A stretch of 64,000 nucleotides of DNA, from positions 10,560,766 through 10,624,765 of the forward strand of contig CM119270.1 of NCBI GenBank assembly GCA_051294375.1, written 5' to 3'. This DNA comes from Paraspadella gotoi (Eukaryota; Animalia; Chaetognatha). The position numbers and the translations under genes were made by a program. The number at the start of each line of letters is the position of its first letter. The stretch's first letter is position 1. Under the pieces are notes generated by a model. It was not told the origin of the DNA. It saw only the letters and a list, made by a program, of their open reading frames with translations, and searched no databases. Of this stretch, positions 7,977 through 47,800 are shown piece after piece.

Positions 7977-8261
7977 TGTAGTCGGGCATTGCCTAGGTTC
8001 ACCCCGCCTATAAGCATGACACCTTCAGTCCTGACCCGGTGGCTCATTGAGTAAAGCCATCAGCTCATGACCACTAGGTACCGGGTTCAATCCCAACCTG
8101 GTACCTACCCTGCGGGAAGCGTGAGGACGGCCGTAAGCCGCCTTGGGGGCGTGGCAACCCCTCAAGCCTGGTTCCAAGCCCAGGACCCGTTCCATGGCTA
8201 CTAAAGGGGGTTATAGAAGTTACGTATAGTTATCTTCAGCCCACTTAGCGCCTTATCCACA
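7977..8261 (+). mobile_element. Family A mini-element (solo-LTR-like): tRNA-like Pol III head plus P5 twister ribozyme
   Basis: Ends TGTAGT...TCCACA with AATA duplicated at 7973-7976 and 8262-8265. A box TGGCTCATTGAG at 8040, B box GGTTCAATCCC at 8084. Twister at 8113-8189. Confidence 0.85.
8113..8189 (+). ncRNA. Twister ribozyme, type P5 permutation
   Basis: P5 cggg; P2b gcgt; GAGGA; P1 cggccg; TAA (predicted cleavage 8134/8135); P2a gcc; GC; P3 cttggggg/ccctcaag; P4 cctgg/ccagg around L4 TTCCAAGC; P5 cccg. Pseudoknots TCC:GGA and GC:GC both pair. Confidence 0.85.
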
Positions 8262-8448
8262 AATATAGCCTATTGCGATAATTGTTTATAAAATAATTTT
8301 TTTTACAAATTAGTATTCACTGGTGGAATGTCATTTATAATTGACATTTAGAATTTTTATACATTATGTATATACTCTCTTTTCGTTCTTTTTGAAGTAT
8401 TAGGAGAAAAACAGTTTTGGTTTGACAACGATTTTTTTTGACATAATT

Positions 8449-8494
8449 AGCCAGACATGTTTCGGCTCATTCAGTTAGAGCCTTCATCAGTGCT
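8449..8494 (-). ncRNA. Minimal type I hammerhead ribozyme (Penelope-like element type)
   Basis: Minus strand agca-CTGATGA-a-ggctc(taactgaat)gagcc-GAAA-cat-GTC-tggct. Palindromic ACATGT stem III; weak stem I. Confidence 0.8.
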
Positions 8495-8659
8495 TTGACA
8501 TGAGCCGAAACATGTCTGGCTAATTATGTCAAAAAAAATCGTTGTCAAACCAGAACTGTTTTTCTCCTAATTTTTATACATAACTTTCGCTTCGCTCCAA
8601 CGAACAATTAGTTTAAAAGAACCGAGTAAGCGTTAACTCTCATGTTATTAAAACCCCAG

Positions 8660-43205: not shown

Positions 43206-44150
43206 CATGGTGACAATTTTACAAGCGCCGGTAAAAATACGCTGTCATTTGCAAACCAGTGGTTATTTCATTGATTTTAAAAATTAGTTGAGTAGAACAT
43301 ATTAAGGTCATTTATGTGTTCAAATTTTATATTGATCAGTTAAGATATGCCTTGGCAATGAGTGGAGAAAGTTGGTTTGTAAAATCGGGTTTCATTTTCC
43401 AACTCACTGTTTTTAAATTCTTTTTTTTCAACTTTTGGCTCTTATTTTAAACAAAGTATTTATTAAGATATTAACAATATTAATATCCTCAGAAAGCCCT
43501 TAAAAAAATGAAGAGAATGAGATACTAACGAAAGCTTTAACATAAAAATTTATTTATTAATTTAAGAGAGTAAAAAGTTAATTATCTAAAATTTCAAATT
43601 TTTTAAAAAAATATATGACCTGTTTAAATTATTATAACATAAAATATTATTATTTATATAAGTATCATGAAAGAGCCTGAAAAAAGGAGATTTAAGATAG
43701 CCAATCACAAATTGATAAAAATCTTAAATTTACCGTCCAGCTATTGATTTTTAAAAAAAGTCTTGTTTTTGAGTATCCTAATTAAATTAAAACTGGGCCA
43801 GTTAAATTTTATACTATAGTATTTGCAAGTATGTCATTCTCTTTAGATTTGAAAGGGCTTTCAGAAGATAATAATATTAATATTATTTTATTTTAAATTT
43901 TTTCAGAAAACTTAATGAAAGTAAGAAAAAAAAATTGAATATAAAAAATTGAGTTAGAAAATGAAACCCGATTTTACAAGCCAACTTTCTCCACTCATTG
44001 CCAAGGCATATCTTAACTGATCAATATAAAATTTGAACACATACATGACTTTAATATGTTCTACTCAACTAATTTTTAAAATCAATGAAATAACCACTGG
44101 TTTGCAAATGACAGCGTATTTCTACCGGCGCTTGTAAAATTGTCACCATG
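43206..44150. mobile_element. 945-bp MITE with ~200-bp TIRs (Tc1/mariner type)
   Basis: catggtgacaattttacaagcgccgg... is mirrored almost perfectly at ~43950-44150. TA on both flanks; AT-rich non-coding interior. Confidence 0.92.
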
Positions 44151-44890
44151 TAGTATTCTGTCAGTGTCGATTACAATCCCGACGGCGTCGACGACGACGT
44201 CGACGACGACGAAAACGACGACTCTTTTCACGTTCCTTTCCCTCATTATTACATTAATTCGCTGGGAAATCGGATAATTTTCTGCCGATTTATTTCTCCT
44301 TTCAAGTCCACCGCGAATTCTTAATCGACTGAGAAAAAAAAAGGAAGATACATTCTTTTCATTCTGTTTTTTTTTTATTTCTGCTTCTTTTTCTTAGTTT
44401 TCCCTCTTATTTTTGTGTTTGTGTGTGTCTCTCTGTCTCCTTCTTTCTCTTCCTTGTTTTAATTCTCAGAAAGATAATCTTCTTTCGAATGCCTTTTTGT
44501 TCGTTCTCTCTCTCTCTCTCTCTCTCTCTCTCTCTCTCTCTCTCTCTCTCTCTCTCTCTCTCTCTCTCTCTCTCTCTCTCTCTCTCATTATTCCGCGTTA
44601 TTTCTCTTCTTTTTTTTTATTAATGCCTTCTCATTCTTATTTTTTTTTTTATATAATCCAAATGATCTCTCTTATCTTTTTTCGTTCTTCTTCCTCTTCC
44701 TCTTCAACCTTCTTTATCCGGCCACCCAAGGCGAAGCCAGTCTCCCTGTCACCCAGCTCTTTACCTTTTTTCTCCCTTTTTTTCCCCTTCATATCCTTCT
44801 TCTCCCCTTTTCCCCGTTGAGTTCCTTCTCTTCCTTTTCTTCCGGTTCCTCTTTCCCTCCTCCTTTCCCTTCTTCTTCCCCTTTCCTCCT

Positions 44891-47800
44891 TTACCACACC
44901 AACCACCTCTCCCCCGGCACCCCCACCCTCCCTAATTCCTCCGACATCTCCATCGCCGCCTCGAACGTCTCTATCTCCTCCTCGTTGGGCTCCTCCCTCC
45001 TCCTCGCCTCCTCCTCTTCCCACTTCATCCTCGCCACCGCGTCCCTCTCCCTCTTCCTCCGCTCCGCCTCTAATCTTCTCTGATTCGCTTGATCTAATCG
45101 ATACTCGATCCTCTCCGTCACGTCCAAACAAAACTCCCTCCTGATTCCGTCGTCCTCTTCCTCCTCCCCTTCTCCTCCTTCCTCCCCTTCTCCCTTTCCT
45201 CCTTCTCCCTCTCCATCCCCTCCTCCTCCATCCTTTCCTCCTCCTCTGTCTCCTCCTTCCCCTTCTCCCGCCAAGAGGTCGTGCCAGTCGTCGTCTACCG
45301 CGTTCAGTTTCAAGAGGACGTCGACGATAAACTCGTCGTCTTCCAACTTCCGGTCGAAGGGTCCGGAAATCCGGCAGGTGGCGACGAAGGCGTCGTGGAC
45401 GCGTTTGACTCGGGGCGGGATGTAGGGCGGGATGGCGGCGCGGGCGGCGATGGCGGCGAGGCGGCGCTTCATGTAGGAGAGGCGTTTCGGGGGTTCTTAT
45501 TTCGGACATGGGTAGGAGGGATCATGTGTACATCAAAACACGAAACATTTCAATAATTTAAAAATTCATTAATAAAATTTTCAATCTGAACCATTATTTG
45601 TTTATAACATAGACACAAACAATGGCATTTATCGAATATAGTCTGTTTTTATGAGGTTTACTTACTGAAATATTGCATTAGTATTGGTCCCTGAATTATT
45701 GTATTGCTAAGGCAAGCATTTTATTTCCTCCTCCTCGACCTTTCTCACCTCTGCCCTCTCCTTCCCTCTTATTCGGCACCGGATCCATCAACATTCTGCC
45801 CGACGGACGGTAATTCACTTCCGCCTCCAAACCGCGAGCGTCGATTCGCCCGTCGTGACGCGGTCGAATCCTGACATTGTGTTGACTTGTGTTTTTTTTA
45901 AATTTTTTTTTTTCGGACATCCTTTAACGTCATCGCAAACACATATATATTTATTTTCTTTATTATGAAGATATTGTGGCGGTATATTCACACCGCCTCA
46001 CGTCCACCATCCTTCAGCCAAATCCATTGGCTCAGAGGGCGAACACACCATCCCAGGCGTAGTGTTCCATCCACAGTCCTAATGACTTCCCTCTGCGTTG
46101 GAAAAGCGAGACCGTCCTAGGGTAACCGCGCCAGTGACTGGAGGCGTCACTGAGGGTCGGAAGCCCCCAAAGCCAACAGTGAGATGCTCCATCCCAATGG
46201 GCATCACAGGCAACCCGGCTGTTGCCATAATATCGTACAAAAGAAAATTTCTTTTTCGCTAAATATTTGGATCAAATCATTCTTTGTCATCTCCAGTGGC
46301 AAGAAAGGAAATATTCTCTGAAGATGACGAAGAAAATTTGTGTGAAGCAATGTATCTCCATACATAAATGTTATATATTAAAATAATATTAAATTATTAA
46401 TCAAAATTAATTAAAATTAATTAATTATTAATTAAAATATTAATATTAAAGTTTAAATATTAAATAAAGATACTAAAGATACAAAACTTATCGCGCCTTT
46501 TAATTTCTTTTTTTTTGCGTTGGTCCGTCTAGACGGTCTTTTTTCCGTTTTGATTAGGTTGTTTGTTTGTTTGTTAGTTTGTCTTCTTTCGCTTATAAAT
46601 TGTTTTCATCCAATTTTTCTACACTTTTTTCCGCTCGATGTCTCCACCTGGGATCGATCCTCGCATCGTTCTTCGGCCCTCTGTCCTTGACGGCGTCGTT
46701 GACGTTGGTGTTGGCGGTTGCGGTGGCGGAGACGAGGACGACGGTTCCGTCGAGCCGCTTCAACTCTTTCCCCGTCGCATCCGCCGAATCGTCGCACTCT
46801 TCCTCAAAAGTGCGGATGAAGTGTTTGAAGCCGCGGCAAACTTCTTTCACACGGGTCTCCACCTTGTAAAGGCGGGGGGGGGAAATGTTCATTTGTCTTT
46901 GCTCCCTCTTCCGTCTGTCCGTCTGTCCGTCCGTCCGTTCGTCCGTCCGTCCGTCCGTCCGTCCGTCCGTCCGTCCGTCCGTCCGTTCGTTCGTTCGTTC
47001 GTTCGTTCGTTCGTTCGTTCGTTCGTTCGTTCGTTCGTTCGTTCGTTCTCCCCTCCAAAAAAACCAGAACCTGATTCCTCTCCGCCTCCGCGATCTTCAA
47101 CTGGTTCCACAGACTCTCGATCAAATCCCGGCGCCATTCCAACAGCGCCATCTGCTTCTCGGCGTCGAAATCCTCGTCGCGAACGGCGCCTTTGGAGCCG
47201 CCGAGTCCCAGGCGCCGCATAGCGTCCTCTCGCGCTCGGCGGCTCCGCTCCGCTGCTTCGTCCCTGGCGCGTTGAAGGGCGTCTTCGGCGGCGGCGTCGT
47301 AACCTTTAGCGAAGGGGGGATGGGGGAGAGGGGGTTTTTAATGAAATGTTTGGGTGGAATTTAGCCTCCATTCCCACCATTTCTTCAACCGCGATCCCCA
47401 CCTTCTTGCTTGGCCCTGGCCACCATCTCCTTGGTCTCAAACTCCAACTCCCTCAGCTTGTTGACGACCCACTCGGCGATGTCCCAGTATTCCTCTTCAA
47501 ACTTGTACTCCAGATCGTCCAGCATCTTGTGGAGAGCGGCCTCGCCGGCCAGTTGGTATTCGTAGGTGAATTCCTCGATGTACTGGAAGAGGGTGAAGGG
47601 TGAAAGGTTGAATGGAGGAAAAGAAGGAAGATAAAATGAAAGAAGGAATGGGAAGTACTAAGGCTTTTATGCTTTGATGATAAGCGATTAAGGAGGTACG
47701 TATTTACAGTAACAAATTTCGTCTTCAATATTTATCTTTAAGCCAATTCCCGTGTCTCACGTGTTTGATCTCCTCCTGAATCGCCTTCCACGTCTCCTTG

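Follow-up and report, generated by a model that had tools for sequence, protein, structure and literature searches.

Four short insertions in the window (the whole stretch of 64,000 nucleotides analysed here) are interpreted, with a probability of roughly 0.55, as solo LTRs of non-autonomous Helenus-like retrotransposons which carry a Pol III promoter together with a self-cleaving twister ribozyme and would work like plant retrozymes. The insertions E1 to E4 fall into three families, with E3 and E4 (87% identity) belonging to a single one. To our knowledge, all LTR retrozymes described so far come from plants and contain hammerhead ribozymes. The combination of LTR ends, Pol III boxes and a twister, of which an earlier note on this DNA knew no description, was not found in the literature searched.

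Table 1. Positions of the insertions, of related copies and of their promoter and ribozyme motifs in the window; ribozymes and their cleavage sites are predictions.
Feature	Position	Strand	Remarks
E1, family 1 LTR-like element	7977-8261	+	duplication AATA at 7973-7976 and 8262-8265
E2, family 2 LTR-like element	22321-22558	- (sense strand)	duplication AGAT; sits inside another repeat
E3, family 3 copy	38956-39189	+	duplication CAAT; ends TGT...ATA; A box deleted
E4, family 3 copy	45975-46229	+	duplication ATAT; antisense in intron
Second reading of E1 locus, same flanks	1637-1917	+	indel-rich fold-back duplication; no independent insertion
Third reading of E1 locus, same flanks	2364-2637	-	indel-rich fold-back duplication; no independent insertion
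Decayed E1 relative	7381-7545	+	5' end and A box align; alignment stops at ribozyme
E1 A box	8040-8051	+	near consensus
E1 B box	8084-8094	+	near consensus
E2 A box	22505-22494	-	
E2 B box	22461-22451	-	variant, C at usual A
E4 A box	46028-46038	+	
E4 B box	46064-46072	+	imperfect
E1 P5-permuted twister	8112-8190	+	G 8123; cut 8134/8135; P1 linker 8128-8133; T1 TCC:GGA, T2 GC:GC
E2 P5-permuted twister	22360-22442	-	G 22425; cut 22414/22413; T1 CCG:CGG, T2 AC:GT
E3 twister	39057-39137	+	one mismatch per pseudoknot; cut 39083/39084
E4 P5-permuted twister	46097-46177	+	G 46110; cut 46123/46124; P1 linker 46115-46122; T1 CGG:CCG, T2 GC:GC

All four elements have TG...CA or TG...TA termini with 5' ends that match TGTNR, the 5'-end pattern of Gypsy elements (PMC2836005), and the longest exact duplication flanking each of them is 4 bp long. 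On recheck, the coordinates, termini and duplications given in the earlier note were borne out for every element. The GC content is 56-57% in the elements versus 20-33% in their flanks, and E4 interrupts a host gene on the minus strand, within a GT-AG intron (45871-46647). In public contigs, the families are very abundant. Loose contig ends stack at exactly 45975 and 46229 for E4 and at 22321 and 22558-9 for E2, with heterogeneous, AT-rich flanks, and empty paralogous sites in three X4 contigs of the repeat that hosts E2 contain AGAT only once. An integrase-type insertion, during which the 4-bp duplication was made, is supported. The elements have neither inverted nor direct terminal repeats, and because direct repeats are absent, the possibility that E1-E4 are whole TRIMs with tiny LTRs is rejected.

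Mobilization by a non-LTR element, which would make the insertions SINE-like or Penelope-derived retroposons comparable to the schistosome tRNA-plus-hammerhead repeats, is highly improbable and largely refuted. In these schistosome repeats, too, a ribozyme follows a Pol III promoter, twisters are known from the RTE-type element Perere-3, and Penelope-type hammerhead cores are present elsewhere in the window, with none inside the four elements. However, the elements carry no simple-repeat or poly(A) tail, their TG...CA/TA ends are both fixed, the duplication measures 4 bp in every case, and the A box lies 53-63 nt inside the element instead of in a 5' tRNA head. Furthermore, tandem arrangement and larger target site duplications (TSDs) characterize metazoan non-LTR retrozymes.

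The status of E1-E4 as solo LTRs is likely. All four copies in the window are solo, and no two-LTR copy was seen. End-to-start joints were absent among the 15 of 100 joints listed for the E4 family and the 15 of 39 listed for the E2 family, and loose contig ends revealed neither a PBS consensus 3' of E4 nor a PPT before E2. The loose-end consensus before the 5' end of E4 closes with a G-rich purine run in three of four runs, which is a weak hint. For E2, a faint PBS-like consensus was seen in one of the two runs listing that end and was not counted. The solo LTRs of a twister retrozyme that the earlier note proposed are backed by integrase-type insertion, twister fold and kinship with Helenus, but not by a two-LTR copy, a PBS or a clear PPT. 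The solo copies and the lack of a PBS and of joints among those listed would also fit a single-unit element, in which the ~250 bp are the whole without any internal region and are mobilized as DNA by a Ginger-like transposase or, from cDNA of ribozyme-cut tandem-copy RNA, by an integrase; Ginger2 shares TGTNR ends, 4-bp TSDs and AT-rich targets. This explanation is unlikely, as the 40-270-bp terminal inverted repeats of Ginger are absent from E1-E4, a DNA transposon would have little use for a conserved promoter and ribozyme, no primer is evident without a PBS, and the wasp precedent described below has two LTRs. In addition, internal segments can escape detection, since De Bruijn contigs are interrupted at the borders of very high-copy repeats.

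The A and B boxes are a probable Pol III promoter, judging from their motifs. Box-like motifs are found in all elements, with the A box deleted in E3, and the P5 stem of the putative twister starts 8-24 nt past the B box; both observations agree with the initial description, which had placed the twister within ~25 nt of the boxes. One consensus base is missing from the B box of E2 and one from that of E3/E4, and the position at which E2 has C for the usual A showed no variant among those listed for family 2. ARAGORN called no tRNA in the elements, and a run of four T is absent from all four of them.

Downstream of the boxes, E1, E2, and E4 carry a modelled P5-type twister fold that is regarded as genuine, with cleavage being predicted. 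The catalytic loop L1, with U/AA at the cut and GA containing the general-base G, is present in all four elements, and the two pseudoknots of 3 bp and 2 bp, which involve the U-NNN-AA-NN loop on P4, are perfect in E1, E2, and E4. The pseudoknot sequences differ between the families and yet stay paired through compensatory changes, with five pairs kept. The covariation claimed earlier holds with the stated base pairs for these three elements, but not for E3, the ribozyme of which is probably impaired because each pseudoknot has a mismatch, as judged on published tolerance data (PMC11662667). P4, P5, and P3 comprise 3-5, 5-8, and 6-7 bp, respectively, and P2 has one mismatch in each element. P1 is a self-complementary linker of 6-8 nt in all three families and has no normal closed hairpin. 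A generic P5 descriptor demanding perfect pseudoknots was run on the 64 kb and on 3000 dinucleotide shuffles per element. In the window, it matched E1, E2, and E4 as well as two chance sequences of 10% GC, while none of the 3000 shuffles was matched for any element. A stricter predecessor, which required the top P2 pair and was relaxed there, had matched E1 and E2 only, and E3 is matched only when two pseudoknot mismatches are allowed, one in each. A chance fold is rejected, being ruled out by these shuffle tests.

In Rfam, E1 matched Twister-P5 with 16.8 bits (E 0.32; gathering threshold 37.6) and E4 gave a partial twister-P1 match of 15.2 bits, whereas E2 had no match and the scan of the whole window, the only one covering E3, returned no twister. 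The earlier note had named the lack of a covariance-model match, together with absent in vitro cleavage, as a refutation of its proposal, and formally no match reaches the threshold; a low score is expected, since in the P5 model, as seen in the alignment with E1, P1 is long and P3 is missing. The folding energy of the twister segments is no better than that of shuffles (z -1.2 to +0.2), and the minimum-energy fold of E3/E4 is a competing structure. Together with the reduced P1, the P2 mismatch and low-depth siblings of family 2, in which the P5 stem is kept and an A-rich loop replaces the core, the competing folds and sub-threshold scores could indicate that the twister is a vestige or a non-cutting structured RNA and that the elements are plain Helenus-type LTRs. 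This is very unlikely given that all catalytic positions and the five pseudoknot pairs are kept via different sequences in three families, that ~94% of the natural twisters tested were active, and that imperfections of P1 and P2 do not reduce cleavage, P1 being reported as dispensable (PMC11662667). Among the within-family variants of at least 3% that were listed, most are located in the loop of P3 and in sequence beyond the core. None affects a catalytic or pseudoknot base of E4, and a single one, at 3%, affects the T1 pseudoknot of E2. In family 3, 4 of 80 twister sites and 15 of 123 sites of the 5' part are variable, a difference that is not significant (p 0.14). Summed contig depth, which shows neither RNA starts nor RNA levels, differs between runs along the elements: within the ~40 nt with which E4 begins, it is lower in X5 and X8 than in X4 and X2; no such drop was observed for E2 in X6.

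The three families are probably distant homologues, according to their sequences. MAFFT did not align the twister cores. Pairwise local alignment scores between families are at shuffle level, which agrees with the initial view of unrelated families without obvious primary-sequence identity. Against this view, their initial ~115 nt are colinear, and the score of an alignment of E2 with E4 over the 5'-most 45 nt was reached by only 4 of 2000 shuffles; for E1-E2 and E1-E4, 307 and 508 of 2000 shuffles, respectively, did so. This probable homology, the impairment of E3 and the palindromic P1 had been overlooked in the earlier note.

The closest relatives known are the Helenus or TRIMp3 elements of animals, which are described by Kojima (2024; PMC10886601) as TRIMs with tRNA boxes and 4-bp TSDs that are linked to Gypsy. 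Like E1-E4, they have short LTRs with TG...CA or occasionally TA ends, tRNA-like A and B boxes and 4-bp TSDs, and solo LTRs are common; in contrast to the families known here from solo copies, they have two LTRs with a PBS and PPT. Sequences from the available part of the Helenus supplement were compared by eye and with six 9-mers, without alignment. No twister was seen in the LTRs compared, most of which terminate in a T run soon after the B box. Helenus-2_SyJa and Helenus-2_SyUm from Synergus gall wasps are reported there as full TRIMs with PBS (tRNA-Trp in Helenus-2_SyJa) and PPT, LTRs of 277 bp, internal regions of 485-487 bp and a 4-bp TSD (PMC10886601). In both LTR consensuses, a type III hammerhead was recognized by eye ~25 nt past the B box, a ribozyme that is un-annotated and receives no mention in PMC10886601. 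The layout of 5' hairpin, boxes, ribozyme and 3' tail resembles that of E1-E4, the difference being that the ribozyme is a hammerhead. By analogy, these elements support the proposed architecture as an independent two-LTR precedent for an LTR with a promoter followed by an exchangeable ribozyme.

In the proposed cycle, Pol III transcription of the 5' LTR would begin immediately upstream of its A box and continue through an internal segment from PBS to PPT as far as the 3' LTR. In both LTRs, the twister would cut at U/AA, releasing a cut-to-cut RNA with a 5'-OH and a 2',3'-cyclic phosphate and without terminal repeat, which host tRNA ligase could close into a circle. A Gypsy-type helper would reverse-transcribe this circle from the PBS, its cDNA would be inserted by integrase with a 4-bp duplication, and solo LTRs could arise from LTR-LTR recombination or from short cDNAs. 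A circle would be unnecessary if the elements were two-LTR Pol III TRIMs with a linear cycle, in which the twister of the 3' LTR takes the place of a terminator and generates the RNA's 3' end, and the 5' copy is cut late or never, leaving an R repeat of ~90 nt for strand transfer. The lack of T4 runs in all four elements, as opposed to the T run right after the B box in most Helenus LTRs seen, would fit such a cycle, and a P1 unable to form a hairpin alone could slow cutting of the 5' copy. However, T4 runs are estimated to be commonly absent by chance from 250 GC-rich bases, and with P1 reported dispensable, the 5' copy should cut too, thereby removing R; this route is considered improbable.

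If the retrozyme reading is correct, E1-E4 join Helenus, which was described as a case of promoter capture without functional RNA, to the LTR retrozymes, and eukaryotic P5 twisters gain a role in LTR retrotransposition. A Pol III TRIM would then solve the problem of its 3' end and R repeat by ribozyme cutting, with twister and hammerhead being interchangeable, and the elements would directly supply an animal with small circular RNAs.

Plant LTR retrozymes (Cervera et al. 2016, PMC4918200), for which this cycle including solo LTRs has been described, are likewise non-coding and have a self-cleaving ribozyme in each LTR and a 4-bp TSD; many of their LTRs are solo, and a Gypsy helper has been proposed for them. 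They differ in their type III hammerhead, in LTRs of 300-400 bp and in that no tRNA-type promoter has been described, and their circles have been demonstrated, whereas E1-E4 are known here from contigs of runs of which none is on record as RNA. In Nicotiana benthamiana, hundreds of retrozyme loci include nine full-length ones; according to a review, retrozymes seem to lack promoters, while one N. benthamiana LTR showed promoter activity. The ribozymes of E1-E4 share with type-P5 twisters (RF02684) the order P5-P2-GA-T1-P1-UAA-P2-T2-P3-P4, the U-NNN-AA-NN loop and both pseudoknots, and differ from them in the 6-8-nt palindrome serving as P1, in the presence of P3 and in non-canonical T1/T2 in two families. 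Reduced-P1 twisters in an animal retroelement are also represented by the T-variants of Perere-3 (Liu et al. 2021, PMC8501958), a non-LTR RTE element in which the ribozyme is located at the 5' end, P1 is completed by the TSD and an internal promoter is missing. In schistosome SINE-like hammerhead repeats and metazoan non-LTR retrozymes (PMC6765202, PMC7229834), a Pol III promoter also precedes the ribozyme, but these are tandem hammerhead repeats without LTR ends, PBS/PPT or 4-bp TSD.

Beyond these systems, a first protein search gave no match, and the motif common to the three families had no match in metagenome and viral contigs. The canonical short-P1 twister pattern was found at 20 metagenome loci. 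None of the 20 has a B box within 120 nt upstream, and no LTR-like direct-repeat pair was present at the seven that were checked for it; Rfam, applied to three of the 20, gave two sub-threshold twisters in another register, which is uninformative on the short P1.

A more far-reaching reading, put forward tentatively and considered doubtful, is that animals possess a class of Pol III-driven LTR retrozymes with an exchangeable ribozyme module, represented by the twister in the three families and by the hammerhead in gall-wasp Helenus-2, and that the twisters cut as a P1-joined domain-swapped dimer, so that only a two-LTR transcript would release a unit-length circle for the Gypsy helper. Such pairing of the two LTR ribozymes through the palindromic P1 is speculative; among the hammerheads of amphibians and Penelope elements, some are active solely in dimeric form (PMC6765202, PMC7229834). 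A hint at cleavage as a dimer comes from structure calculations, according to which the P1 palindromes do not fold alone and self-dimerize at -6.3 to -11.0 kcal/mol.

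The four LTR-like elements E1–E4 (about 250 bp each) belong to three families, E1 and E2 representing one each and E3 and E4, which are 87% identical, the third. Their GC content is 56–57% versus 20–33% in the flanks. A direct check bore out their placement in the earlier note, including TGT at all four 5' ends, ACA or ATA at all four 3' ends, and an exact 4-bp duplication, none being longer, around each element. A systematic scan of the window for GC islands yielded 11 candidates, of which four rows are E1–E4, four belong to two additional readings of E1, and three are other stretches. 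Contigs from public sequencing runs were compared with E4 and, separately, with E2; 8567 contigs in run X4 and 12624 in run X2 matched the E4 locus. Summed contig depth, from which no copy number is drawn, was 1.5–2.7 million over E4 versus 170–198 in its flanks (X4) and 0.3–0.7 million over E2 versus about 100–250 for single contigs. Both families are present in very many copies. Loose ends of contigs pile up at 45975/46229 (E4) and at 22321/22558-9 (E2), and the consensus beyond them is heterogeneous and AT-rich with an agreement of about 0.4–0.5. E1–E4 are thus genuine high-copy insertions whose ends are fixed.

E2 and E3 are nested in other repeats, the other window copies of which do not contain them. 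For the host repeat of E2, three X4 contigs join both flanks via one AGAT at paralogous sites, not at an orthologous empty allele; since AGAT is single at these empty sites, the duplication arose on insertion. Neither terminal inverted nor terminal direct repeats were found in E1–E4. This excludes Ginger-type MITEs, as Ginger-type elements carry terminal inverted repeats of 40–270 bp according to the available text of PMC2836005, and also whole TRIMs with tiny LTRs. Two additional E1 copies are not insertions independent of E1 because they have the same flanks inside an indel-rich fold-back; the underlying duplication looks like a fold-back read or an amplification artefact. Some low-depth family 2 siblings retain the two termini only.

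Features of the window
Feature	Position	Strand	Observation
E1	7977-8261		flanked by 4-bp duplication; GC island
E2	22321-22558	minus (sense of promoter and ribozyme)	4-bp duplication
E3	38956-39189		4-bp duplication; GC island
E4	45975-46229		4-bp duplication; GC island
Additional E1 copy	1637-1917		inside fold-back
Additional E1 copy	2364-2637		inside fold-back
Fold-back	1-8571		large duplication in inverted and direct orientation, rich in indels, copies 85-91% identical; palindrome at centre
Decayed E1 relative	7381-7545		positions 4-45 align (0/2000 shuffles as good); A box retained; alignment stops at ribozyme; preceded by purine-rich stretch
GC-rich stretch	17478-17815		TG/TA...CA/TA ends, 4-bp repeat; may be chance
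GC-rich stretch	29458-29765		as preceding
GC-rich stretch	30534-30782		as preceding
Low-depth family 2 siblings	joints 22346/22347 to 22431		P5 stem kept, A-rich loop replaces twister core
High-depth X8 contigs	22450-22509		a few, with differing letters, restricted to A/B-box region
Hammerhead core	8454-8516 (copy near 2143)	minus	inside palindrome 8399-8571; Rfam Hammerhead_3 26.7 bits, E 0.2
Hammerhead core	10234	plus
LRRC23-like exon	19114-19302	minus	leucine-rich-repeat gene
Intron	45871-46647	minus	GT-AG; CT...AC joint of one X8 contig

A descriptor of the P5-permuted twister, based on the class consensus and compared with the consensus printed by Rfam, matches E1, E2, and E4 with perfect pseudoknots, together with two chance matches at 10% GC in the window; E3 is matched only with two mismatches permitted. 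Among 3000 dinucleotide shuffles per element, the strict descriptor has no match and the relaxed one 3–6. A joint motif, derived from these elements, is present in E1, E2, and E4 and in none of 100 shuffled windows. The claimed covariation of the pseudoknots can be read in E1, E2, and E4, where the 3-bp pseudoknot T1 is TCC:GGA, CCG:CGG, and CGG:CCG and the 2-bp pseudoknot T2 is GC:GC, AC:GT, and GC:GC, respectively; no change occurs in U/AA, in the GA with the general base, or in the AA of the loop. Family 3 variants of at least 3% affect four of the 80 ribozyme positions, of which two belong to the P3 loop, one is central in P1, and one follows P4; no catalytic or pseudoknot base is affected, the contrast with the 5' part (4/80 vs 15/123 sites) being non-significant (p 0.14). 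In family 2, the P3 loop is the most variable ribozyme position, no variant is listed for AC:GT, and a 3% variant affects a single base of T1.

The covariance-model check turned out negative, with no Rfam twister model at threshold for any element (E1, 16.8 bits with the full P5 model; E4, 15.2 bits, partial; E2, none). The scores are low because P1 is collapsed and P3 is aligned as a 22-nt insertion, as seen in the Rfam alignment of E1. Two metagenome twisters, L001:298-370 and L020:398-459, also lie under the Rfam thresholds with 32.6 and 42.9 bits. P2 contains a mismatch, the predicted stability of the twister segments does not exceed that of shuffles, and a competing fold is preferred in the predicted folding of E3 and E4. 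An inactive twister fold, on which these results bear, is considered improbable. According to the available text of PMC11662667, about 94% of more than 2600 natural twisters assayed showed activity; cleavage withstood defects in P1 and P2 but was reduced by pseudoknot mismatches. Based on these tolerance data, the ribozymes of E1, E2, and E4 are predicted to be active and that of E3 to be impaired.

The A/B boxes, which are tRNA-type Pol III promoter motifs, lie 53–116 nt into the elements, with the twister beginning 8–24 nt past the B box. ARAGORN detected no tRNA in the elements, and none of the four contains four consecutive T. Set beside these boxes on the one hand and the fixed ends with 4-bp duplications on the other, a SINE or Penelope derivative appears highly improbable. 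The description of the three families as unrelated goes too far. The E1–E2 and E1–E4 alignments of positions 4–45 do not exceed shuffles to the degree of E2 and E4, whose alignment beats 1996 of 2000 shuffles. All three families are colinear across the first ~115 nt. From this comparison, distant common ancestry seems likelier than convergence, though unproven for E1. The X8 contigs restricted to the A/B-box region suggest a separate abundant tRNA-like sequence akin to the family 2 promoter.

With a probability of roughly 0.55, these families are Pol III LTR elements that work like plant retrozymes by a circular RNA route. Pol III would transcribe the element from its 5' LTR, and cutting by the twister of each LTR would leave a unit-length RNA without the R repeat. 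This RNA would be circularised, by analogy via the RtcB ligation described for retrozyme RNA (PMC7229834, available text), and then primed at the PBS, before the cDNA would be inserted by a Gypsy integrase. The proposal is modelled on the plant retrozyme cycle (PMC4918200, available text); the likeness would lie in the working, but E1–E4 carry a predicted twister instead of the hammerhead. A linear cycle, in which the ribozyme would serve as 3'-end former, is rather unlikely.

Every copy in the window is solo, and no end-to-start joint of an element occurs among the joints displayed (15/100 for E4, 15/39 for E2). In the public-run contigs, no PBS was found after the 3' end of E4 and no PPT for family 2, a test of LTR pairs that is weak either way because highly abundant repeats interrupt contig graphs at their ends. 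Just before E4, the loose-end consensus closes with a G-rich purine run in three runs (X4, X2, and X8), but not in X5; it is clearest in X8 (14 contigs, agreement 0.46) and resembles the PPT ends of Helenus. That E1–E4 are single-unit elements is judged rather unlikely.

Helenus elements are TRIMs with tRNA-like LTR sequence, 4-bp duplications in animals, and Gypsy-like PBSs (Kojima 2024, PMC10886601, available text). E1–E4 agree with them in two defining features, but all their copies in the window are solo. In the same text, 'twister' does not occur and 'ribozyme' occurs once, within a reference title; six twister-loop 9-mers had three matches in the supplement, all internal-region and unrelated, although line breaks may conceal some. 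By eye, none of the Helenus LTRs examined in this supplement, the animal consensuses among them, has a twister. The LTRs of Helenus-2_SyJa and Helenus-2_SyUm (DataS1.fa), two of the five CTGATGAG matches in the supplement file, contain an apparent complete type III hammerhead ~25 nt after the B box. By eye, it consists of a GUC site, a 7-bp helix I, CUGAUGA, a 4-bp helix II, GAAA, and a 6-bp open helix III, with loops I and II complementary across 12 nt. Both are described as full elements with LTRs of 277 bp, internal regions of 485–487 bp, and a 4-bp duplication, and the tRNA-Trp PBS of Helenus-2_SyJa matches Gypsy-32_NVi; this hammerhead is not mentioned in the available text (PMC10886601). 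The two elements show that Pol III boxes and a putative ribozyme in one animal LTR exist as a two-LTR element. If their hammerheads are real, these wasp elements would be animal LTR retrozymes.

In the available text of PMC7761336, PMC6765202, PMC8501958, PMC9695139, PMC7229834, PMC13570524, and PMC12859917, twisters are tied to RTE-type non-LTR elements only, and animal retrozymes are said to be without LTRs, PBS, and PPT. A twister together with Pol III boxes in an LTR was not found in the literature searched (mostly open-access; outside Repbase and Dfam), so that the suggestion of an undescribed combination stands within this scope. The architecture of E1–E4 would join two known kinds, Helenus-type LTR elements and retrozymes.

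The P1 linkers CGGCCG, GGCGUC, and UCCUAGGG are self-complementary along their whole length; none folds alone, and their self-dimer energies are -10.7, -6.3, and -11.0 kcal/mol, respectively. All six inner P1 pairs, which are unneeded by a hairpin, are complementary; at ~0.35 per pair this corresponds, post hoc, to about 0.002. Penelope hammerheads reportedly cleave as dimers only. The same has been described for amphibian hammerheads (PMC7761336, PMC7229834, available text). By analogy, twister cleavage as a dimer through the palindromic P1 might be imagined, which stays speculative because P1 is reported to be dispensable.

The hammerhead cores of the window are minimal, with a palindromic CAUG helix III; we take them to be of the Penelope type. 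The best named matches of the LRRC23-like exon are from annelids, echinoderms, hymenopterans, and a bivalve (48–56%), and the host is an intron-containing invertebrate. E4 lies within the intron listed in the table, its ribozyme being antisense to the host transcript.
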